Shown here: positions 6,184 to 17,538 of the stretch, piece after piece
How the letters are laid out: each line of letters begins with the position of its first letter
How positions within the stretch are numbered: the stretch's first letter is position 1
Assembly: GCA_035940855.1 (NCBI GenBank)
Contig: DASZEM010000025.1
Location: 8,067-72,066 of the forward strand
Reading direction: 5' to 3'
Length of the DNA: 64,000 bases
Source: Thermoanaerobaculia bacterium
Lineage (GTDB): Bacteria; Acidobacteriota; Thermoanaerobaculia; Multivoradales; UBA5704
Made by a program: the position numbers and the translations under genes
Notes under the pieces: model-generated
Told to the model about the DNA's origin: nothing
Seen by the model: the letters and a program-made list of their open reading frames with translations, nothing else
Database searches by the model: none

Positions 6184-6702
6184 ATGCTTTTGACGATCCG
6201 CGCCAGCCAGACCCCCGCCCCTGTTCTCGCGGCGCGCCTGGGCCTGCCGTTGGACCGGATCGAGACGTTCGAGCTCCCCTTCGGCCGCGCCCACGCGTTC
6301 TTCCCGGAGGCCACGGAGTCCGAGAGCACCGTGGCGCTGGTGGTGGATATCGATCCTTTGGAGGTCGATCCGGTCGATGAACGCCTCTACACGGCCTCGC
6401 CTCTCCTGGCCCGGGCTGTCGAGGGCCTGCTTGCCAAGCAGGCGGAGGCCGGGCCGGCGATCCCCCTGGAGGCGCGCCTGGCGGCCCTGCCCTGCCAGGG
6501 CGGGGAGGAGCGGCTGCGGCGCGCCTTCGAGCCTCTCGGGTATGCGGTGGCGGCGGAGGCGCTGCCGCTCGATCCGGCCTTTCCGGACTGGGGGCCGAGC
6601 CGGTGCTTCACGGTCACCCTGCGGGCGACCCTGCCCGTCCGGGAGGTGCTCGCTCATCTCCGTGATCTCATTCCGGGGCTGACTGAAGAGGCCGCCCCGT
6701 GA
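6184..6702 (+). CDS. hen1: Hen1 N-terminal (Hen1_L) domain only; lacks the methyltransferase domain
   Basis: MLLTI..., FELPFGRAHAFFPEA, LEARLAALPCQGGEE.LRR.FEPLGY, LD..FPDWG.S, LIPGL match bacterial Hen1 N-terminus; stops at 172 aa; overlaps pnkp start. Confidence 0.85.
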   Translation: MLLTIRASQTPAPVLAARLGLPLDRIETFELPFGRAHAFFPEATESESTVALVVDIDPLEVDPVDERLYTASPLLARAVEGLLAKQAEAGPAIPLEARLAALPCQGGEERLRRAFEPLGYAVAAEALPLDPAFPDWGPSRCFTVTLRATLPVREVLAHLRDLIPGLTEEAAP

Positions 6703-8999
6703 GCCTGCCGATCCCCGAGCTTTCCCTCGTCGTCCTCATCGGACCCTCCGGCGCGGGCAAATCCACTTTCGCCCGCCGGCACTTCCGGCCCACCGAGGTG
6801 CTGTCGTCCGACGCCTTCCGTGCCTGGGTTTCCGATGACGAGCACGACCAGTCGGCCACGCGGGACGCCTTCGACCTCCTCCACCGCGTCGCGGCCAAGC
6901 GGCTGGCCCGGGGCCGGCTCACCGTCGTCGACGCCACGAGCGTCAAGCCCGAGGCGCGCAAGCCCCTGCTCGAGCTCGCCCGCCGCTACTACGTGCGCCC
7001 GGTCGCCCTCGTCTTCGACCTGCCCGAGGAGGTCTGCCAGGAGCGCAACCGCCGGCGCCCGGACCGCCAGGTCGAGCCCTACGTCGTGAGCGGCCAGATC
7101 GACGAGCTCCGGCGCTCTCTCCGGGACCTTGCCAGCGAAGGGTTCCGCCGCGACGTCTGGATCTTCCGCTCGCCCGAGGAGGTCGAAGCGGTCCGCATCG
7201 AGCGGCAGCCCCTGCGGCCGGACCGGCGCTCCGATCACGGCCCCTTCGATTTGATCGGCGACGTCCACGGCTGCGGCGACGAGTTGGAGGAGCTGCTGGC
7301 GAAGCTCGGCTACGCGCCCGATGCCTCCGGCGTCTTCCATCATCCCGAGGGCCGGAAAGTGGTCTTCCTGGGCGATCTCGTGGACCGCGGGCCGCGCGTG
7401 CCGGACGTGCTCCGGATCGCCATGGGGATGGTGAAGGCGGGTTCGGCCCTCTGCCTCCCGGGCAACCACGACGACAAGCTGCTGCGCTGGCTCCGGGGGC
7501 GCAACGTCCGGATCGCCCACGGGCTGGAGCGCTCGATCGAGCAGATCGAGCGCGAAGACCCCGGGTTCCGCGCCGAGGCCGCCGACTTCCTGGCCGGCCT
7601 GCCGAGCCACTACGTGCTCGACGACGGCCGGCTCGTGGCCGCCCACGCCGGCCTGAAGAAGCCCATGCAGGGGCGCGACACGGGGCGCGTCCGCGACTTC
7701 GCCCTCTATGGCGAGACCACGGGCGAGGTGGACGAGCTGGGCCTGCCGGTCCGCCTCGACTGGGCCGCCGAGTACCGAGGGTCCGCCCTGGTGGTCTACG
7801 GCCACACGCCCGTGGCCGAGCCGCGCTGGTTCAACGGCACGCTCAACGTCGACACGGGCTGTGTCTTCGGCGGCAACCTCACGGCCCTGCGCTACCCCGA
7901 GCGGGAGCTGGTCTCCGTGCCCGCCCGGAGGGCCTGGGCGGGCACGGCCCGGTCGGCTCATCTGTTCCTCCCCCAGACGGCTCAGGGACCCTCCGGCGTG
8001 GATCCTCGCTGGCTCCTCTACCTGCCGCCCGCTCCGGTCCTGCCGGAGCCCAGCCGCCGGCCGGGTTTCCTCGAGCACCCCGACGAAGTGTTCGCCCACT
8101 TCCGGGCCGAGAGAATCGAGCGCGCCGTCTGCGAGGAGACGCTCGGAGGTACGAGAGCCGTGGTGGTGGTCTGCCGCGACGAGCAGGAGGCCCGCCGCCG
8201 CTTCGGGGGAGAGGGGATCGGAGCTGCCTGGACGCGCTCCGGCCAGCGTCTGATCGACGGTCCGGCGCTGGAGAAGGCCTTCCTCGGCCGTCTCCGCGAA
8301 ATCCTTGACCGCGCGGGGCTCTGGGAACGGCTGGACACGGGTTGGGTCTGTCTCGAAGGGGAGCTGACGCCCTGGTCGCTGCGGAACGGGGATCTCCTCC
8401 GAGATCGCCATGCCGCCGTGGGCGCGGCGGCCCGGGCGGCCCTGCCCAAGGTGGTGGCGCGTCTCGCCGAGGCTGGAGCCCGGGAGCTGGACGTTCGAGA
8501 TCTCCTGGCCCGGCACCGCGAGCGCTACGAGCTCTCGGTGCGGTTCGTCGAAGCCTACCGCCGCCGCTGCCGCCGGGTCGCCTCGGTGGCGGACCTCCGC
8601 TTCGCGCCTTTCCACCTCCTCGCGACCGAAAAGAACGCCCACGTGGACAAGGACCGCGTCTGGCATCTGGAGACCCTGGCCGAGGTCTGCCGGTCCGGTC
8701 CGGAGCTGCTCGTGGCTCTCCCGTTCCGCCTCGTGGATCTGGGAGATCCCGCGAGCGAGGCCGAGGCCGCGCGCTGGTGGGAGGAGAAGCCGGAGGGCAT
8801 GGCCGTCAAGCCCCTCGCCTTCGCCGCTCCGGGCCGCCGCGGCCTCGCCACTCCGGCCATGCTCTGCCGGAGCCGGGAGGCCCTGCGGCTCGTCCACGGC
8901 CCCGAGTACACGCTGCCGGAAAACCTGGAGCGCCTGCGGACGCGCTTGCGGGATGGACGCTCTCCTGGCCCGGGCCGGGTGTACGATTCCTTCCCATGA
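6699..8999 (+). CDS. pnkp: Polynucleotide kinase-phosphatase (Pnkp) with degenerate, truncated ligase domain
   Basis: P-loop GPSGAGKST; metallophosphoesterase GDVHG, GDLVDRG, GNHD, GHTP; ligase region VDPRWLLYLPP, EGELTPWS, FAPFHLLATE, EGMAVKP but motif I reads EETLGGTRA. Confidence 0.9.
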   Translation: MSLPIPELSLVVLIGPSGAGKSTFARRHFRPTEVLSSDAFRAWVSDDEHDQSATRDAFDLLHRVAAKRLARGRLTVVDATSVKPEARKPLLELARRYYVRPVALVFDLPEEVCQERNRRRPDRQVEPYVVSGQIDELRRSLRDLASEGFRRDVWIFRSPEEVEAVRIERQPLRPDRRSDHGPFDLIGDVHGCGDELEELLAKLGYAPDASGVFHHPEGRKVVFLGDLVDRGPRVPDVLRIAMGMVKAGSALCLPGNHDDKLLRWLRGRNVRIAHGLERSIEQIEREDPGFRAEAADFLAGLPSHYVLDDGRLVAAHAGLKKPMQGRDTGRVRDFALYGETTGEVDELGLPVRLDWAAEYRGSALVVYGHTPVAEPRWFNGTLNVDTGCVFGGNLTALRYPERELVSVPARRAWAGTARSAHLFLPQTAQGPSGVDPRWLLYLPPAPVLPEPSRRPGFLEHPDEVFAHFRAERIERAVCEETLGGTRAVVVVCRDEQEARRRFGGEGIGAAWTRSGQRLIDGPALEKAFLGRLREILDRAGLWERLDTGWVCLEGELTPWSLRNGDLLRDRHAAVGAAARAALPKVVARLAEAGARELDVRDLLARHRERYELSVRFVEAYRRRCRRVASVADLRFAPFHLLATEKNAHVDKDRVWHLETLAEVCRSGPELLVALPFRLVDLGDPASEAEAARWWEEKPEGMAVKPLAFAAPGRRGLATPAMLCRSREALRLVHGPEYTLPENLERLRTRLRDGRSPGPGRVYDSFP

Positions 9000-11529: not shown

Positions 11530-12885
11530 CTAGAAGGGATGGGCCCCGTGGGCGCCGATCGCGAATTGGAGTTGGAGGAGGAGCTCGTTGGCGTCCTCGT
11601 CGGTCAGGCTGTAGTGGCGGCGCCGGAGCTCGGCCCGGAGCTGGGAGAACTCGCTCGGCCAGAACGTCAGCAGGGCGGCCTTGCCGGTGTCACGCCGCGT
11701 CTCGTCGTCGGCGTGGTCGGCCGCTTCGAGGCGGGCGCCCACGAACCAGCGCCGGGCGAGCTGGTAGTCGCCCGAGACGTACCAGCCGACCGCGTTCTGA
11801 TCGCCTCCCGGCTGCTCGCGGCGGCTCCGGTACACCTCGCCGCGCAGGATGGCCGAGCGGTAGCTGCCGGTCTGCAGCGGCTTCCAGCGGTAGGTCAGGT
11901 CCAGGCCTTCGAGGCGGGTGTCGGCGTCCTCCTCCGTGCCGTTGGGACCGAAGCCGTAGGAAAGCCCCAGATCCAGGTTGCTGGCTTCCGTCAGATCGGC
12001 GAAGACCCGGTAGTGGCCGTTGTAGGAGAGATCGCCGCGGCGCTCTCCCTCGAAGAGCCCCTCCGCCTGGCCGCGGAAGACCTGCAGCGTGCCCTCGGTG
12101 AAGACGTCCCCCACCGGGAAGAGCCGGGAGACCGAGGCGCCGGTGGCGATCCACCCCTCGTCGCCGCCCAGGAGGTTCACCACCGGCAGCGGCTCGTCGG
12201 GCCAGGGCAGGACGTGGAGGTGCAGGGTGTTGACCTTGCCGAACGAGGTCCGGATGCGGCCGACCTTGGCCAGCAGGCCCGCCGGGAGGGCGGTGAACGT
12301 GATGAAACCCTCTTCGACGTCGACTCCCTCTTCTCCGAAGGAGAGGAAGAAATCGGCGCGCGCGTAGGGATCGACGATCGCCTGAAGCCCCACCTCGGAT
12401 TCGCGCAGCTCCGTGGCCGGGAGGTTCTCTGTGTGGTTGCGGCCGGCGACGGCGAGGAAGTTGCCGATCACCGACATGCTGGGATTGAAGTAGTTCGAAG
12501 TCTGCCCCCCCTCGCCGCCGCCCCCGCCAGTCCCTGGCTCGGCCGGAGCTTCTGCTACGGCCGTGGGCTCGGCGGGCGGGACGGCTTCCGGCGCCTGGGC
12601 GGTCTCCTGCGGGGGCGGCGGGGGAGCCGTCTCCTCGGGGAGGGCCGGGGGAGCCTGTCCTTGGGCAACCTGCAGGTCGGCCAGACGCTTTTCGAGATCG
12701 GAGATCCGCTGCTCGTAATCGGCCCGGAGCGCCTCGATTTCCTTGCGCAGGGCGGTCACGGCGTCGTCCGGCGGCGGCGTCTGCGGCTCTTGCGCGCGCG
12801 CGGCGGCGGGCACGAGCAGGCAGAAAACCGTGCACGCTCCCAAAATCCAACAGCGGGCGCTCGCGGCCCGCGAATCGGTAGACAT
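11530..12885 (-). CDS. Outer-membrane beta-barrel protein of metal uptake operon
   Basis: Signal peptide, coiled coil and Pro-rich linker, alternating beta-strand pattern, C-terminal LQLQFAIGAHGAHPF; GGAGAGG RBS before MSTDS. Confidence 0.75.
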   Translation of the reverse strand: MSTDSRAASARCWILGACTVFCLLVPAAARAQEPQTPPPDDAVTALRKEIEALRADYEQRISDLEKRLADLQVAQGQAPPALPEETAPPPPPQETAQAPEAVPPAEPTAVAEAPAEPGTGGGGGEGGQTSNYFNPSMSVIGNFLAVAGRNHTENLPATELRESEVGLQAIVDPYARADFFLSFGEEGVDVEEGFITFTALPAGLLAKVGRIRTSFGKVNTLHLHVLPWPDEPLPVVNLLGGDEGWIATGASVSRLFPVGDVFTEGTLQVFRGQAEGLFEGERRGDLSYNGHYRVFADLTEASNLDLGLSYGFGPNGTEEDADTRLEGLDLTYRWKPLQTGSYRSAILRGEVYRSRREQPGGDQNAVGWYVSGDYQLARRWFVGARLEAADHADDETRRDTGKAALLTFWPSEFSQLRAELRRRHYSLTDEDANELLLQLQFAIGAHGAHPF

Positions 12886-12944
12886 TGGGGTCCTCTCCAC
12901 GAAGCAGCCTCCGCGCTCCATGCGCCGGAGGGTGAAGCTTCACG

Positions 12945-13331
12945 CTACGCGGACAGGGAGACCGGAGGGGCTCGGGCGGGGCCGAAAAGGGTGACGTCCC
13001 GGGAGGAGAGGCGCACCGCCGAGGCGGCCGCGTGGACGTCGCGCGCGAGCGGCGGGATGGGGATGGGGGGCTGGCCGAGGACGGTCCGGGTCTCGAGCTG
13101 CAGCAGGCAGGCCACGCAGCCCGGGTGGACCTTCATCTCCGCCGGCTCGAGGTGGGCGGGATCGCCGGGGTGGACGGCGCTCTCGGCGATCTCCATCCGG
13201 GAGACCGCGCCCGCCCGGTCCGCCGCCATGTCGTGCGGCGTCACTCCCTCGGACGCCAGCCCGAGGCAGGCGGCGATCGCGAAGATCACGCGCCACCAGG
13301 CGAGCGGTCCATGGGCGTTGCGGGCGTTCAT
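12945..13331 (-). CDS. DUF2946-like leader protein with CxxC and C-terminal RAPP motif
   Basis: Hydrophobic N-terminus, HPG..H, GCVAC, Pro-rich linker, ends GPARAPPVSLSA; directly upstream of the OM protein gene. Confidence 0.75.
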   Translation of the reverse strand: MNARNAHGPLAWWRVIFAIAACLGLASEGVTPHDMAADRAGAVSRMEIAESAVHPGDPAHLEPAEMKVHPGCVACLLQLETRTVLGQPPIPIPPLARDVHAAASAVRLSSRDVTLFGPARAPPVSLSA

Positions 13332-13424
13332 CACCGGTGTGTCCCTCGACACCTCTCCATGGTATCAGGCGACACGTCCTCGGCAAGAGGGAACAAGCGG
13401 GAAGGGGCTCGGGATTCCGGGCCG

Positions 13425-13904
13425 CTAATCCGGTCCGGGGATACCGCCGGCGATCGACGCCACGATCGGGACTCCGACGAAGGGAAAGTGCCCGATCAGT
13501 TGGACCCACCAGCGCGGGTTGATCGTGGGCGGGCGATGCAGCAGCAGAGGAATGACCGCCAGCGACATCACCAGCCAGATGAAAGGTCCATACACCGAAG
13601 CGGCCTTGACCACTCCATACCGCGAGCTGAGCACGCGGCGGATCCGGGCCGAGCGCAGGACGAGGAGCAGAAAGACGGCGGACCACCCGAACGCGACCCC
13701 GAAGTGCATCAGAACGCCGATCAGGGCCGGTTTGGTTCCCCCGCCGATCGCCTCCTTGCCCAGGAGCGTCGAGGCGACGCCCTGCCAGAGCCGCGTCACC
13801 GTCGAGCCGTAGAAGGCGACGCTCAGGACGCTCGAGAAGAGCCCGTCGGTGACGCCGGTCAAGAGACCGGCGCGCACGAGCCGGGACCAGGGATCTCGGA
13901 TCAT
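13425..13904 (-). CDS. Integral membrane protein (four predicted TM segments)
   Basis: GLLTGVTD, WQGVASTLLG, GVLMHF, YGPFIWLVM..AVIPL; start reset to MIRDPW. Confidence 0.7.
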   Translation of the reverse strand: MIRDPWSRLVRAGLLTGVTDGLFSSVLSVAFYGSTVTRLWQGVASTLLGKEAIGGGTKPALIGVLMHFGVAFGWSAVFLLLVLRSARIRRVLSSRYGVVKAASVYGPFIWLVMSLAVIPLLLHRPPTINPRWWVQLIGHFPFVGVPIVASIAGGIPGPD

Positions 13905-13956
13905 GCGGGGAATATAGTACAGGCGCCCCCTTCCAAAGGGCTCCGCCCCCCGCGGC

Positions 13957-14073
13957 AATGATGATGAGGTTGAGCAGGGGCTTGGGCGTGAGGAGCAGGC
14001 GGCTCTGGAAGGTCCGGGTGGTGACCTCCACGAGTGCGCCGCCTTCTGGGATGAAGCGAAGAGGTCGGGCCAT
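13957..14073 (-). pseudogene. N-terminal remnant of an IS200/REP-associated tyrosine transposase
   Basis: MARPLRFIPEGGALVEVTTRTFQSRLLLTP resembles Y1_Tnp/RAYT N-termini; similarity ends after 39 codons, no HUH motif follows. Confidence 0.55.
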
Positions 14074-14165: not shown

Positions 14166-15395
14166 TCACCGCCGCACGATTCTGCCGCGGAAGCCCACGG
14201 GCATGGGCACCGCGGCGAGCATCATGCGCACAGACTCCGGCTCCTCCACCTCCAGGCGATAGCGGGTCAGCATCAGGTGGCAGAGCAGGATCAGTTGCGT
14301 GGTGCCCAGGCTCGCGCCAATGCATGCCTTGGGCGCCCAGCCGAACGGGACGTAGGAGGCACGGGGGCAGGGGCCGTGTTCCTCGTCGAGCAGCCAGCGG
14401 TCCGGGTCGAAGACGTCGGGATCCTTCCAGTGCCGCGGGTCGTGATGGATAAGGTACGTGCTGAGGAGATACCGCTGGCCAGGCTCGAGGTTTACGTTGT
14501 CGAGGCGGATGCCCGTGCGCACCGGCCGGGTCATGAACACCGGCGGGCTCCAGATGCGCAGGACCTCCTTCACGAAGCGGTGCGTCTCCGGGGCCGACTG
14601 CGTGGGCGAGCCGTACAACCGCTCCAGGGGCAGCGGCGCAAGCTCGGCTGTCAGGCGCGCGGCCCAGTCGCTCCGACGGGTCAGCTCGTACAGCAGGCTC
14701 GCGGCGGCGGCACCCGGGGGCCCGGCGATGGCGGTCAGCACCGTGGTGACCGCGTCCACCGCGCGGTCCACGCCGAGCTCCGGCAGCAGGTCGACGATCG
14801 GATCGGTCAGGTCGAGCCGGCGTGGCCTGTGGCCCCTGGCGCGGTCGCGAAGCTCGCGGCGCACCGCGTTTCCCGCGCGGATCTGGATCCAGATCGAGCG
14901 GATCTCCTTCCAAATCGACTCGCCGTCGGACTGGGTGCGCACCAGCCGCGCCAGCTTGAAGTCCTGATCTCGCAGGATGTGCGCCCGGTCGGCCGGCGGC
15001 AGCCCGTCCACGACCGTGGGCAGGAGAGCGCGCGTGCACACCTGCTGCGTCGCCCATGTCATGTCGAGAAGCCGGCCGAGTCGCTCTTCAATCAGGCCGC
15101 TCATGCGTTCGGCGAGCTGCCCCACCCCCTCGGCGTCGGACAGGCGCCGGAGCTGCGTGATCAGCGCCGAGCGCACCTGCTTCCAGGAGACCGGAGGGCC
15201 CTTGCGTCCCCGCACCACGTCAGCGAGCTTGTCGGGCAGGGTCAGGTCGCCGAAGTTGATTGCGTTGACCTTCTGAGCGATCTCGGGATCGAACACGGCC
15301 AGCTCGCCTTCGGGGGTCCAGAAGACGCCGCCTTCCGCGAGGCTCCGGGCGCGCATCTCGGTAACGAACTCAACTTCCTCGGGTGCTCTGTCCAT
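14166..15395 (-). CDS. Cytochrome P450 (P450-1, downstream of precursor)
   Basis: ExxR (KEVLR), FDPDRW, heme motif FGWAPKACIG; GGAGG RBS before MDRAPEE. Confidence 0.92.
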   Translation of the reverse strand: MDRAPEEVEFVTEMRARSLAEGGVFWTPEGELAVFDPEIAQKVNAINFGDLTLPDKLADVVRGRKGPPVSWKQVRSALITQLRRLSDAEGVGQLAERMSGLIEERLGRLLDMTWATQQVCTRALLPTVVDGLPPADRAHILRDQDFKLARLVRTQSDGESIWKEIRSIWIQIRAGNAVRRELRDRARGHRPRRLDLTDPIVDLLPELGVDRAVDAVTTVLTAIAGPPGAAAASLLYELTRRSDWAARLTAELAPLPLERLYGSPTQSAPETHRFVKEVLRIWSPPVFMTRPVRTGIRLDNVNLEPGQRYLLSTYLIHHDPRHWKDPDVFDPDRWLLDEEHGPCPRASYVPFGWAPKACIGASLGTTQLILLCHLMLTRYRLEVEEPESVRMMLAAVPMPVGFRGRIVRR

Positions 15396-15413
15396 GCGTC
15401 CTCCGCAAGGCGC

Positions 15414-15444
15414 GGCCGGAGGGCAAAACCTCCGCCCTCCGGCC
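15414..15444 (-). other. Stem-loop immediately 3' of the precursor-peptide stop
   Basis: Perfect 11-bp stem GGCCGGAGGGC / GCCCTCCGGCC with 9-nt loop, no U tract. Confidence 0.7.
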
Positions 15445-15454
15445 TTCGAACGAC

Positions 15455-15544
15455 TCAAATGTGGTGATAGAAGTACCACCAATATTCACGATCCCTACGC
15501 CGGACGGCCAGGGCCGTTAGGACGGCGCGCGCGATCTTGGCCAT
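15455..15544 (-). CDS. Putative RiPP precursor peptide MAKIARAVLTALAVRRRDREYWWYFYHHI (29 aa), below the ORF-track cutoff
   Basis: ATG 15544, TGA 15455-15457; AAGGAGGT Shine-Dalgarno with 7-nt spacer; 8 consecutive aromatic residues in the C-terminal core; sits between two P450 genes. Confidence 0.85.
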   Translation of the reverse strand: MAKIARAVLTALAVRRRDREYWWYFYHHI

Positions 15545-15568
15545 GTGACTCACCTCCTTTCTCCTGGT

Positions 15569-16711
15569 TCAAGGCCGATGCGGGTGCAGGCCCAGCGTGA
15601 ACCGGGGTGGCGCGAGCGCCGGGCCCATGCTCGGCCGGGTGTCCCGGGGCGCGACGGTCAGCTCGTGGCCGTCGAGTAGGATCTTGAGCACGTCCTCGAC
15701 GAGCTGGATGGAGAGCGAGCCCGCGACGCACGTATGCGGGCCCCATCCAAACGGAATGAACGCCTGCAGGTCGGGAGAGGCGGCCCAGCGCTCGGGCCGG
15801 AAGCTCTCGGGATCGTCCCAGTAGCGCGGGTGCCGGTGCACCAGGTAGGGGCAGACGACCACGACATCCTGCGGTGTGACCTGGACGCCCGCCACCTCGT
15901 GGGCTCGGGTGGGCTGACGCCCCAGCATCCAGGCCACCGGCCAGAGCCGCAGCGCCTCCAGCACGATCCACGCCGGCGGCGCATCAATGCGCGGATTTGT
16001 GCCCAGCAGCCAGACCGACCAGCCGAGCACGAAGCCGACCGAGCCGCCGATCGAGAAGACGAACGACAGGAACACCTCGGCCAGTTCCGAGGACAGCGCG
16101 TCCGGCCCCGCTCCCTGGACCACCACGTCGAGCAGGTCGGCTGGCTCGCCGCCGCTGCGCGCTCTCCGCTCCTCCACTGCCCGCACGAGCGCACGCTCCA
16201 CCTGAAACCGGAACACCGCCCGCCGCAGACGGGAGTAACGCTGGCGCGCCCCGGCCAGCACCGCGCGCTCCAGAACCGCGTCGATCGTCCTGCGCAGCGG
16301 AGCCGGGCTGTCCGGCGAGAGCAGGGCATCCGCGAGATGCTGGTAGAGGAGTCGGTTGCCGGCGTCGGGCCACTCGCTCGACGGCGCGAGCCGCCGCACG
16401 GACTCCTCCAACTCGCCCGCATGGGCGCGCAGATAAGAGCGCAGCAGCATTCGCGCTGAGCGGCCGATCTGGATCTGCGCGGAGCGCGGACCGAACACAC
16501 CGCGGCGCGTGTGGAAGAAGTCGGCGTGCTCCTCGTACAGCCCGTCGCCGTTGATCAGCACGGCACGAGCCGCCGCCGGCTCCGCAACACAGAGCTGCCG
16601 GCCCGGCAACCAGAAGGCGTCCCCCGCGGCCGGGAACGCCCGATCGAGATACCCAGCCGGATCGCGGTGGAACGCGGCATCCAACTCTCGTTTGAACATC
16701 ACGAAACCCAT
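15569..16711 (-). CDS. Cytochrome P450 (P450-2, upstream of precursor)
   Basis: ExxR (LEALR), FRPERW, heme motif FGWGPHTCVA; start uncertain (16750, 16711 or 16699). Confidence 0.9.
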   Translation of the reverse strand: MGFVMFKRELDAAFHRDPAGYLDRAFPAAGDAFWLPGRQLCVAEPAAARAVLINGDGLYEEHADFFHTRRGVFGPRSAQIQIGRSARMLLRSYLRAHAGELEESVRRLAPSSEWPDAGNRLLYQHLADALLSPDSPAPLRRTIDAVLERAVLAGARQRYSRLRRAVFRFQVERALVRAVEERRARSGGEPADLLDVVVQGAGPDALSSELAEVFLSFVFSIGGSVGFVLGWSVWLLGTNPRIDAPPAWIVLEALRLWPVAWMLGRQPTRAHEVAGVQVTPQDVVVVCPYLVHRHPRYWDDPESFRPERWAASPDLQAFIPFGWGPHTCVAGSLSIQLVEDVLKILLDGHELTVAPRDTRPSMGPALAPPRFTLGLHPHRP

Positions 16712-16788
16712 CGGCCGTGGACCCTTCGACCCACAGCATGCACGGTTCATAATATCTAGGTGCTCAGAAGAAAAAGGACGGGACACCC

Positions 16789-17538
16789 ATGACTGACAAG
16801 AGCTATCGGTTGTTCGGAGAGCTGGCGCACCGCTATGATCTGCACACGCCGCCCGGCCACTACCTGCCCAAGTACGAGTTCGTGCTCGACGAGCTACGCC
16901 GATACGGCGCGGGCGCCCAGGTGCTGGACCTGGGCTGCGGCACCGGGGCCCTGCTGGAGAGTCTTCGCTGCGCGGGCCTCGCGGGTCGCGGGATCGATAT
17001 CTCGCCAGAGATGGTCGCCGTCGCCGAGCAGCGTCTCGGCCCCGGCGTGGTCCGGGTCGGGCGCCTGCAGGACCTCGAAGAGCGGGAGACGTGCGACGCC
17101 ATCGTCTCGATGGCCTTTGCATTCAACTACTGCGCTGACGTTGCCGAAGCACGGCAGGCCCTGGCGGGATTCCACCGCGCCTTGCGCCCCGGTGGGCTCG
17201 TCATACTCCAGGTAGCGCACGCGCCGAACTGCCCCGACCACCTCTTCGAAGAGTGGGAGCCGGGACCCGGCGGCGAGAGGGATGTCCAATTTCTCTGCCG
17301 CTTTTTGCCCGTGCCGGGAGAGGTGCCCGCCGTCCGGGCGCAGTATGTCTACTCCTGCCGGAGCCTCAAGGAGCTCCTCGCCGAAGAGCACGTCCTCAAC
17401 GTGGCGGACGTGTACCTGATCGCCGGGCTCCTGCGTGACACAGGGTTCTGCGAGGTCCGGATCTATGACAACTCGCGGCGAGAGCCCCTGTTGAACGCTC
17501 TCGCGCCGTACGTCCTCGGAGTTCGTCGGATCTTGTAA
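16789..17538 (+). CDS. Class I SAM-dependent methyltransferase
   Basis: Motif I VLDLGCGTG, GIDISPEMV, CDAIVS..AFNY, ALRPGGLVIL; divergent from P450-2. Confidence 0.9.
   Translation: MTDKSYRLFGELAHRYDLHTPPGHYLPKYEFVLDELRRYGAGAQVLDLGCGTGALLESLRCAGLAGRGIDISPEMVAVAEQRLGPGVVRVGRLQDLEERETCDAIVSMAFAFNYCADVAEARQALAGFHRALRPGGLVILQVAHAPNCPDHLFEEWEPGPGGERDVQFLCRFLPVPGEVPAVRAQYVYSCRSLKELLAEEHVLNVADVYLIAGLLRDTGFCEVRIYDNSRREPLLNALAPYVLGVRRIL

Follow-up and report, generated by a model that had tools for sequence, protein, structure and literature searches.

A divergent DUF2946 leader gene of Thermoanaerobaculia heads a porin and Znu-type metal-uptake operon that it may control by ribosome arrest

Leader proteins of the DUF2946 family are defined by a CxxC motif, an RAPP arrest core and a spacing of 45 ± 1-2 residues between the two (45 in CruR), and alteration of this spacing impaired copper regulation (PMC9426467); more than 95% of the family carry an N-terminal export signal or an Nin-Cout anchor. 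Only two have been studied – CruR (Bp2923) of Bordetella pertussis (PMC9426467) and CutF of Rhodobacter capsulatus (PMC9973294; bioRxiv 10.1101/2025.02.05.636593) – and both respond to copper and are opposite in action, CruR being relieved by metal and CutF arrested by it. In a purified system, arrest of CruR occurs when the ribosomal P and A sites hold codons three and four of the core, both Pro (PMC12992588; PMC10951233), and the structural basis of RAPP-type arrest has been described (PMC10951233). Of the known arrest cores the strongest two are RAPP and RGPP, and RAPP-like sequences are selected against in ordinary proteins (PMC12992588). Family members are not all copper-specific, as indicated by HupE/UreJ neighbours and by CzcI (both in the CutF paper), and a Caulobacter DUF2946 gene precedes czrCBA. 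Here, we describe a 128-aa leader open reading frame (ORF) in a 64,000-nt stretch of DNA from a Thermoanaerobaculia bacterium (assembly GCA_035940855.1, contig DASZEM010000025.1, positions 8,067 to 72,066; hereafter the window), which, judged from sequence comparison and RNA folding, probably holds up the ribosome that translates it and so turns on the genes for metal uptake that follow.

The leader ORF lies on the minus strand, from an ATG at 13331 to a TAG at 12947-12945 (a start at an in-frame GTG at 13352 would lengthen the product to 135 aa), and encodes MNARNAHGPLAWWRVIFAIAACLGLASEGVTPHDMAADRAGAVSRMEIAESAVHPGDPAHLEPAEMKVHPGCVACLLQLETRTVLGQPPIPIPPLARDVHAAASAVRLSSRDVTLFGPARAPPVSLSA. The N-terminus is basic and leads into a hydrophobic stretch (about residues 11-30; Kyte-Doolittle 1.8-1.9 in 15-aa windows). 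After this come several His and Glu residues, CVAC (residues 72-75, nt 13118-13107), a Pro-rich stretch that reads GQPPIPIPPL, and a C-terminal end, FGPARAPPVSLSA, in which RAPP (residues 120-123, nt 12974-12963) stands five codons before the stop and is followed by VSLSA. An earlier note on this DNA, written by a model from the letters alone, had described this anatomy together with the 59 nt that separate the leader from the next gene, though without naming the strand, and every element of it is present. The AlphaFold2 model of the leader is largely unstructured (predicted local distance difference test, pLDDT, 56; predicted template-modelling score, pTM, 0.18), with helices only at 9-26 and 73-82, the second of these being a short helix that begins at the CxxC.

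A homologue search over 5.8 billion proteins returned 34 clusters with 55-100% identity to the leader, and a profile search over 1.84 billion representatives returned 56 clusters; with only 56 clusters among so many representatives the leader clade is small, and the genomes that carry it, where named, are Acidobacteriota of the class Thermoanaerobaculia. Against PF11162 (DUF2946) the window leader scores 18.7-18.9 bits (E 0.003), below the gathering score of 23.7, in an alignment that spans profile positions 5-117 of 117; the same profile matches 31 of the 34 close homologues (E ≤ 0.1; best E 1.8e-6), and precomputed PF11162 matches are present on P0026 and on the L029 leader. By these matches, and by its CxxC, RAPP and fixed spacing, the leader is a divergent member of the DUF2946 (CruR/CutF) family, which bears out the assignment made earlier, with the window protein itself remaining sub-threshold. 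NCBIfam holds no family for the leader, for the porin encoded behind it, or for the membrane protein encoded upstream.

Conservation is concentrated in the motifs. Residues H54, P55, P58, H60, E62, E65, H69, P70, C72, C75, P118 and R120-A121-P122-P123 are invariant in the 34 homologues, and L115, G117, P118 and A119, just N-terminal of the core, are invariant or nearly so. Mean identity is 0.89 over residues 47-83 and 0.92 over LxGPARAPP, with 0.66 in the linker between them (residues 84-114). Among the 79 clade members that have both motifs and complete C-termini, 44 residues separate the CxxC from the R of the core in 71 (and in the window leader), 43 in six and 45 in two; the core is RAPP in 70, RGPP in six, RASP in two and RSPP in one, with 2-10 residues after it; and both the CxxC and a preceding H-x5-H-x-E are found in 79/79. 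This pattern fits a sensor, a ruler or spacer, and an arrest module. Because the conservation is motif-specific we regard the leader ORF as a real, conserved gene; RAPP near a stop is not itself the reason, being nothing unusual in this DNA of 70% G+C. R[AG]PP lies within 12 aa of the stop in 16 stop-to-stop ORFs of the window, and the leader is the only one of these that also has a CxxC.

The gene that follows the leader encodes a protein with a signal peptide, a coiled coil (42-76), a Pro-rich linker, a predicted β-barrel of about 16 strands and a C-terminal end reading GAHGAHPF. In its AlphaFold2 model the barrel has a pLDDT of about 80 (mean 62.7), and the best Foldseek matches of the barrel are chitoporin, OprP, DcaP and general porins, at E 3e-8 and weaker and TM scores of 0.4-0.5; a sequence search of the PDB gave no match. 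There are more than 7,600 homologues, every one labelled hypothetical, and the protein has no Pfam family. The porin start is an ATG at 12885, 6 nt after a GGAGAGG Shine-Dalgarno (SD) sequence (12898-12892), leaving a leader-porin spacer of 59 nt (12944-12886). An in-frame ATG at 12921 was discarded as the start, having no ribosome-binding site, and the proteins of relatives begin M-S/T-T-D-S-R.

Behind the porin, at gaps of 13 nt and then 9 nt, come genes for a ZnuA-family periplasmic binding protein and an ABC-3 (ZnuB-type) permease. The ZnuA-like protein aligns all three His ligands (DPH, NPHYW, FHDSW) with those of Synechocystis ZnuA (DPH, DPHIW, FHPSW) and E. coli ZnuA (SEH, NMHLW, FHDAY). 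The His-rich insert of classical ZnuA is absent from it (residues 100-133), and AztC-type proteins likewise do not have this loop; AztC is its best NCBIfam match, at 109 bits against a cut-off of 350. A cognate ABC ATPase gene was not found in the window, where only a MacB/LolD-like gene at about 38.3-39.0 kb, some 25 kb off, was seen. All porin-ZnuA-ABC-3 cassettes examined for this (window, L002, L003, L026-L029) are likewise without an ATPase gene, so the ATPase of the importer would be encoded elsewhere or shared.

The arrangement is conserved. Of the 25 related loci read, 20 have the porin-ZnuA-ABC-3 cassette behind the leader, amid flanking genes that are not related, and in every one of these loci the leader is first and co-directional with its targets. 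OEP/RND genes follow the leader in 2/25 and a TonB-dependent receptor gene in 2/25. In the distant cassettes of L026-L029 the porin is 59-73% identical and the leader is far more diverged. Of the Zn/Mn-type context that the earlier note gave the leader, the zinc-type part is upheld by a conserved cassette, by the three-His ZnuA-like protein, and by a divalent-cation pump encoded behind a sibling leader.

The messenger RNA has the potential to sequester the porin SD. The earlier note had suggested a search for a fold of this kind, and one was found that recurs in relatives: RNAfold pairs CCU-G-UCCGCG (12958-12948) in the last codons of the leader with CGUGGA-G-AGG around the porin SD. In relatives the leader tail contains CCUCUCC, the exact complement of GGAGAGG, and pairing of tail and SD is part of the minimum-energy fold of 15 of 16 loci, where it encloses a conserved hairpin (12931-12908) that has 97.3% of its cells paired across 14 loci, as compared with 39-67% in slid registers. 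The window duplex has an energy of -17.6 kcal/mol against a background of -10.7 ± 3.0 (top 2.6%), and in the median locus the duplex beats 95% of the other 21-nt windows of the same locus. The SD of the window (12892-12898) has a predicted unpaired probability of 0.03 in the free mRNA. The anti-SD is written in two frames among relatives, as t-CC-TCT-CC-g (Ser-Ser-Pro) and as c-CTC-TCC (Leu-Ser), and uses the rare codon TCT, which makes up 5.5% of Ser codons in window genes; the use of two frames and of a rare codon points to selection at the RNA level. In 16 of 23 distinct loci the first Pro of R[AG]PP has the codon CCT (in the window at 12966-12968), compared with 3.8% of Pro codons in window genes, and this rare codon may serve either RNA pairing (CCUCC) or the choice of P-site tRNA. 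No terminator-like site occurs in the leader-porin spacer, the intergenic hairpin being without a U-run, and intrinsic termination there was rejected.

We think it reasonably probable that the leader is a cis-acting DUF2946 regulator of a four-gene uptake operon – leader, porin, ZnuA-like binding protein and ZnuB-like permease – in which arrest at RAPP unmasks the porin SD. The anatomy, conservation, family membership, gene context and pairing potential are established by the comparisons above, and from them we infer the arrest, its metal dependence, its polarity and the identity of the metal. At the arrest the P site would be occupied by CCU (P122) and the A site by CCG (P123), the geometry established for RAPP peptides and for CruR (PMC12992588, PMC10951233). 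By then 45-66 residues would separate the H-x5-H-x-E...CxxC segment (H54-C75) from the peptidyl-transferase centre, which would place the segment just past the end of the exit tunnel, where binding of metal or folding would alter the force on the nascent chain and with it the duration of the arrest. Folding near the tunnel exit relieves arrest of the SecM type. An arrested ribosome would protect about 15 nt downstream and would cover most of the anti-SD, the pairing of tail and SD beginning about 4 nt past the A-site codon of a ribosome stalled at RAPP. As long as the ribosome stays there the SD would be free, and the porin and the tightly packed ZnuA and ZnuB genes would be translated; once the arrest is relieved the ribosome would terminate and leave, the tail would re-pair with the SD, stacked on the conserved hairpin, and expression would fall, a shut-off that Rho may reinforce by acting on the C-rich leader RNA. 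Because an importer should be off when metal is plentiful, metal is expected to relieve the arrest, which is the polarity of CruR.

Several observations weigh against this reading. The predicted opening of the SD gives support of a qualitative kind and is modest: the mean unpaired probability rises from 0.06 in free RNA to 0.19 with a ribosome at RAPP (0.09 with one parked 30 nt upstream), and a ribosome at the stop codon does not differ from one at RAPP (0.18), so that dwell time would be what matters. In this RNA of 70% G+C the SD also finds other partners, and the window fold alone is not significant (z = -1.68; z = 0.42). Neither the intergenic hairpin (14 loci, one pair changed on both sides) nor a second hairpin in the 5′ untranslated region (5′-UTR; 13 loci) covaries beyond shuffles, and covariation is no test of the SD pairing because both of its sides hardly vary. 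The short-tail subgroup L026 and L027 has no complementarity between tail and SD, so that its fold must be another one. Close relatives of the leader also stand in front of efflux operons, where the response has to be the reverse. As to zinc as the signal, both characterised DUF2946 leaders respond to copper, and in L001 and L002 the cassette adjoins PepSY_TM and TonB-dependent receptor genes.

The same arrest sensor could instead have a transcriptional output like that of CruR, with the stalled ribosome blocking Rho and its release leading to Rho-dependent termination before or inside the porin gene, either alone or together with masking of the SD. We give this a low probability. It draws on a C>G bubble (C about 50%, G about 27%) that runs from just after the CxxC to 25 nt beyond the leader stop, thus taking in ~190 nt at the 3′ end of the leader ORF together with 25 nt of spacer, and on the rare CCT codons; the mapped rut region of cruR has the same properties and is marked by such a bubble (PMC9426467). 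A possible stopping point is a hairpin with a short U-run that lies 15-43 nt into the porin ORF, in which GCGGGC...GCCCGC sits inside CCGAU...GUUGG. It is kept in close relatives, includes the rare codons ATT and TTG, and is not significant alone (0.3 ± 0.8 expected in shuffles); it could act as a pause or attenuation site that is erased by translation of the porin. The spacer, at 59 nt and strongly structured, is unlike the 162 nt of cruR; the C excess may merely mirror Pro, Ala, Ser and Leu codons; and termination by Rho leaves the conserved anti-SD of the tail without a role.

As the most likely metal we favour Zn(II), or some other divalent cation, over copper on account of the three-His ZnuA-like protein and of the pump encoded behind a sibling leader. 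In ZnuA-type proteins a His at the third ligand position is found in zinc binders and a Glu in Mn/Fe binders, and the His found here appears to narrow the 'Zn/Mn-type' label given earlier toward zinc. The sibling leader of L030 heads an OEP-CzcB-CzcA efflux operon whose pump carries DFGILVDGAVVMVEN, in agreement with DFGX3DGAX3VEN, the signature that marks HME1/HME2 pumps for Zn, Co, Cd and Ni, as distinct from the copper/silver type (PMC3637150). The His/Glu motif specific to this clade would add ligands typical of Zn(II) and not of Cu(I). The competing view is that the leader senses copper as CruR and CutF do, the operon being copper-repressed or the zinc importer being induced under copper stress, and we give it the same low probability as an output through Rho. 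Its arguments are the copper response of the two studied members, the CxxC, which is a classic Cu(I) site, and the PepSY_TM and TonB-dependent receptor genes beside the L001 and L002 cassettes, which are the usual partners of CruR. The zinc pattern of the ZnuA-like protein and the divalent-cation signature of the sibling's pump, which is not of the CusA type, count against it, as does the invariant His/Glu motif, which is not among the family motifs listed in the CruR paper (PMC9426467). Nor is any ZnuA/ABC-3 system known to import copper.

It is very unlikely that the ORF encodes a working periplasmic or membrane-anchored metal-binding protein that acts in trans, as a chaperone or accessory, with RAPP having no regulatory role. 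A putative export signal, an invariant metal-binding motif and constant association with transporters would suit such a protein, and CzcI and CopL of the same family have been considered as regulators in the periplasm (CutF paper). It is opposed by the predicted disorder, by a linker variable in sequence and fixed in length, by R[AG]PP held invariant at a fixed distance from the CxxC when RAPP-like sequences are selected against in ordinary proteins (PMC12992588), by a tail conserved at the nucleotide level as the complement of the SD, and by the instability and cis action of CruR and CutF. That the leader is a chance ORF of G+C-rich DNA with CxxC and RAPP, as the 16 window ORFs ending in R[AG]PP might suggest, is refuted by the 34 close and 56 representative homologues, the conserved motifs, the Pfam matches and the fixed position at the head of the cassette.

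Since uptake and efflux operons have opposite needs, members of the clade must differ from one another in polarity or in the logic of the mRNA. The sibling loci of other types that were read carry more distant members of the leader clade and comprise two of efflux type (L020, in which the leader heads an OEP gene, and L030) and two of receptor type (L033 and L034, in which it precedes TonB-dependent receptor genes). A simple division in which RGPP marks efflux and RAPP uptake was ruled out, as L028 and L032 combine RGPP with the porin cassette and L020 combines RAPP with efflux. In the two efflux loci, L020 (756-868) and L030 (4349-4437), an anti-SD-like CUCUCC is found 7-17 nt past the stop, outside the stall footprint, and modelling gives a weak trend (n = 2) in which the SD is unpaired at 0.24 with a stalled ribosome and at 0.34 with one at the stop. 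Placement of the anti-SD past the stop could thus invert the output of the same sensor, a hypothesis from n = 2 loci. A broader proposal is doubtful: that the acidobacterial RAPP/RGPP clade senses Zn(II) or other divalent metals co-translationally through an evolved His/Glu/Cys motif and that anti-SD position alone sets the output, with 4-13 nt after the second Pro codon, inside the stall footprint, going with an importer and 7-17 nt after the stop, beyond it, going with HME-RND efflux. If true, no zinc sensor acting as a nascent chain would precede this one, and a single module would switch both uptake and efflux.

In its peptide the leader resembles CruR, and in its mRNA layout it resembles CutF. 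Like CruR (PMC9426467), it is the small first gene of a metal-uptake operon, has a putative N-terminal export signal and a CxxC followed by 44-45 residues and by RAPP close to the stop codon, has no predicted fold to speak of, has a C>G bubble and rare CCT codons in its 3′ half, and is followed by a gene for an outer-membrane uptake protein; the expected logic, in which metal relieves arrest and uptake goes off, is also the same. It differs from CruR in falling below the Pfam threshold, in belonging to an acidobacterial clade, in its extra invariant H-x5-H-x-E/E/H motif, in a spacer that is structured and short (59 nt, and 56-133 in 23 relatives measured, versus 162 nt), and in the complementarity of its tail to the SD of the next gene. 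Where cruR precedes genes for a TonB-dependent receptor and PepSY_TM, this leader precedes a porin and a ZnuA/ABC-3 importer, and its metal is probably not copper.

CutF (PMC9973294; bioRxiv 10.1101/2025.02.05.636593) is an exported leader, as this one is predicted to be, and likewise directly precedes its target; the spacer is short, and the target SD is shielded by a stem, which in CutF is melted off the cutO SD by the stalled ribosome. Unlike the leader described here, CutF has CxxxC and an EF-P-dependent PPP, whereas RAPP is reported to resist EF-P; and metal induces CutF stalling to turn on a detoxifying oxidase, while the target here is an importer. ApdA, ApdP, ApcA and SecM (PMC7897499, PMC10951233, PMC12992588) are also small exported proteins with an RAPP/RGPP core close to the C-terminal end, and their genes precede the gene that is regulated. 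They monitor Sec/YidC through translocation pulling force, whereas this leader has a putative metal-binding motif at a fixed distance and is followed by metal transporter genes. CzcI and Caulobacter CC2720 are encoded by DUF2946 genes heading Zn/Co/Cd transport operons (czc/czr RND efflux), as are the siblings in L020 and L030; CzcI has no C-terminal Pro motif (CutF paper), whereas RAPP or RGPP is retained in the siblings from Acidobacteriota.

The family, the arrest core, both output mechanisms, the existence of non-copper members and a DUF2946 gene ahead of czrCBA are already published. The suggestion in the earlier note that the mechanism extends to other metals is therefore not new, having been preceded by the CutF paper and the Caulobacter czrCBA case. 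New, as judged by sequence, are the divergent acidobacterial clade with its added His/Glu motif, the combination of a CruR-type peptide with a CutF-type mRNA, the wiring to a porin and a Znu-type importer, and siblings placed before HME-RND efflux operons and TonB-dependent receptor genes. In the main texts of the CruR paper, both CutF papers and the 2025 RAPP survey, none of the words zinc, ZnuA, ABC transporter and porin occurs, and a survey that relies on annotation would leave this context unclassified because the porin behind the leader carries none.

The clade would test whether nascent-chain metal sensing can be retuned to zinc or divalent metals through added His/Glu ligands, how a fixed 44-residue ruler couples metal binding at the tunnel exit to the peptidyl-transferase centre, and whether one sensor can serve both import and efflux. 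It also offers a working annotation for a porin-like family of more than 7,600 proteins, which would provide entry through the outer membrane for Znu-type uptake in Acidobacteriota, a phylum abundant in soil and with little known of its metal homeostasis. The features of the locus are listed in Table 1.

Table 1. Coordinates in the window of the leader, its operon and the candidate RNA elements
Feature	Position	Strand	Evidence
Candidate leader-operon promoter: TTGCCG (13386-13381), 16-nt spacer, extended -10-like TG-n-TACCAT (13367-13359)	13359..13386	-	conservation
Possible 5′-UTR hairpin GUGUC-GAGG-GACAC, just upstream of leader start	13339..13352	-	pairing in 13 loci
Leader ORF, divergent DUF2946 (CruR/CutF family) member	12945..13331	-	homology, Pfam profile
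N-terminal hydrophobic segment, ~residues 9-27, putative export signal or membrane anchor	13251..13307	-	hydropathy, predicted helix
Putative metal-binding core H54-x5-H60-x-E62...E65...H69-P-G-C72-V-A-C75	13107..13172	-	conservation in homologues
C>G bubble, candidate Rho-utilisation region	12920..13127	-	78-nt sliding windows, mRNA strand
Pro/Ala-rich linker, residues 84-114, length fixed, sequence variable	12990..13082	-	homologue comparison
Candidate arrest module L-x-G-P-A-R-A-P-P, residues 115-123	12963..12989	-	conservation
Leader tail codons VSLSA (GUCUCCCUGUCCGCG), predicted anti-SD partner of porin ribosome-binding site	12948..12962	-	folding, duplex energy
Conserved intergenic hairpin CCUCCGGCGC-AUGGA-GCGCGGAGG, just 5′ of SD	12908..12931	-	pairing in 14 loci
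SD GGAGAGG of porin gene	12892..12898	-	near-invariant in 18 uptake-type loci
Porin-like outer-membrane protein, 451 aa	11530..12885	-	AlphaFold2 + Foldseek
Terminator-like hairpin plus AUUUUGGG, within first 45 nt of porin ORF	12843..12871	-	terminator scan
ZnuA-family periplasmic metal-binding protein, 306 aa	10596..11516	-	PF01297, E 1.9e-51
ABC-3 (ZnuB-type) permease, 296 aa	9696..10586	-	PF00950, E 4.8e-40

Upstream of the leader, the block listed as a candidate promoter is probably that of the operon, with an extended -10: the -10-like sequence cTGaTACnAT is invariant in 13 related loci (window form TGATACCAT), and a scan with a strict sigma-70 consensus did not call it (8/12 matches). 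The 5′-UTR hairpin has 84.6% of its cells paired in the 13 loci, and in three sequences one pair differs at both positions, with CG in place of UA. GTGTCG also occurs within the promoter spacer (13375-13370), and the hairpin could instead be an operator repeat. An Rfam scan of 12600-13600 (E ≤ 1) gave no known riboswitch or leader RNA.

Within the porin family, the His motifs HLHVLPW (at about residues 222-228) and the C-terminal GAHGAHPF are invariant, and the N-terminal coiled coil is DcaP-like; these may be metal-selective features. In L001/L005 (8452-11728 of contig_19633, from a long-read metagenome-assembled genome) the porin and transporter genes are in fragments (215 aa, 143 aa and a 111-aa ABC-3 piece), which are probably assembly indels and not pseudogenes. 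Two cytochrome P450-like ORFs (14166-17122, minus strand) lie upstream of the gene for a 177-aa membrane protein (13425-13958), and the one that was scanned, 14166-15482, matches PF00067 at E 2.1e-26; they are not part of the unit because they are not kept beside the leader in relatives. On the other side, a Pnkp-type RNA repair gene (kinase-phosphatase-ligase; 6699-8999, plus strand) adjoins the cassette, as it does in several relatives (L002, L026, L027), and Hen1 is found near it in L002, a local synteny with no obvious functional link to the cassette.

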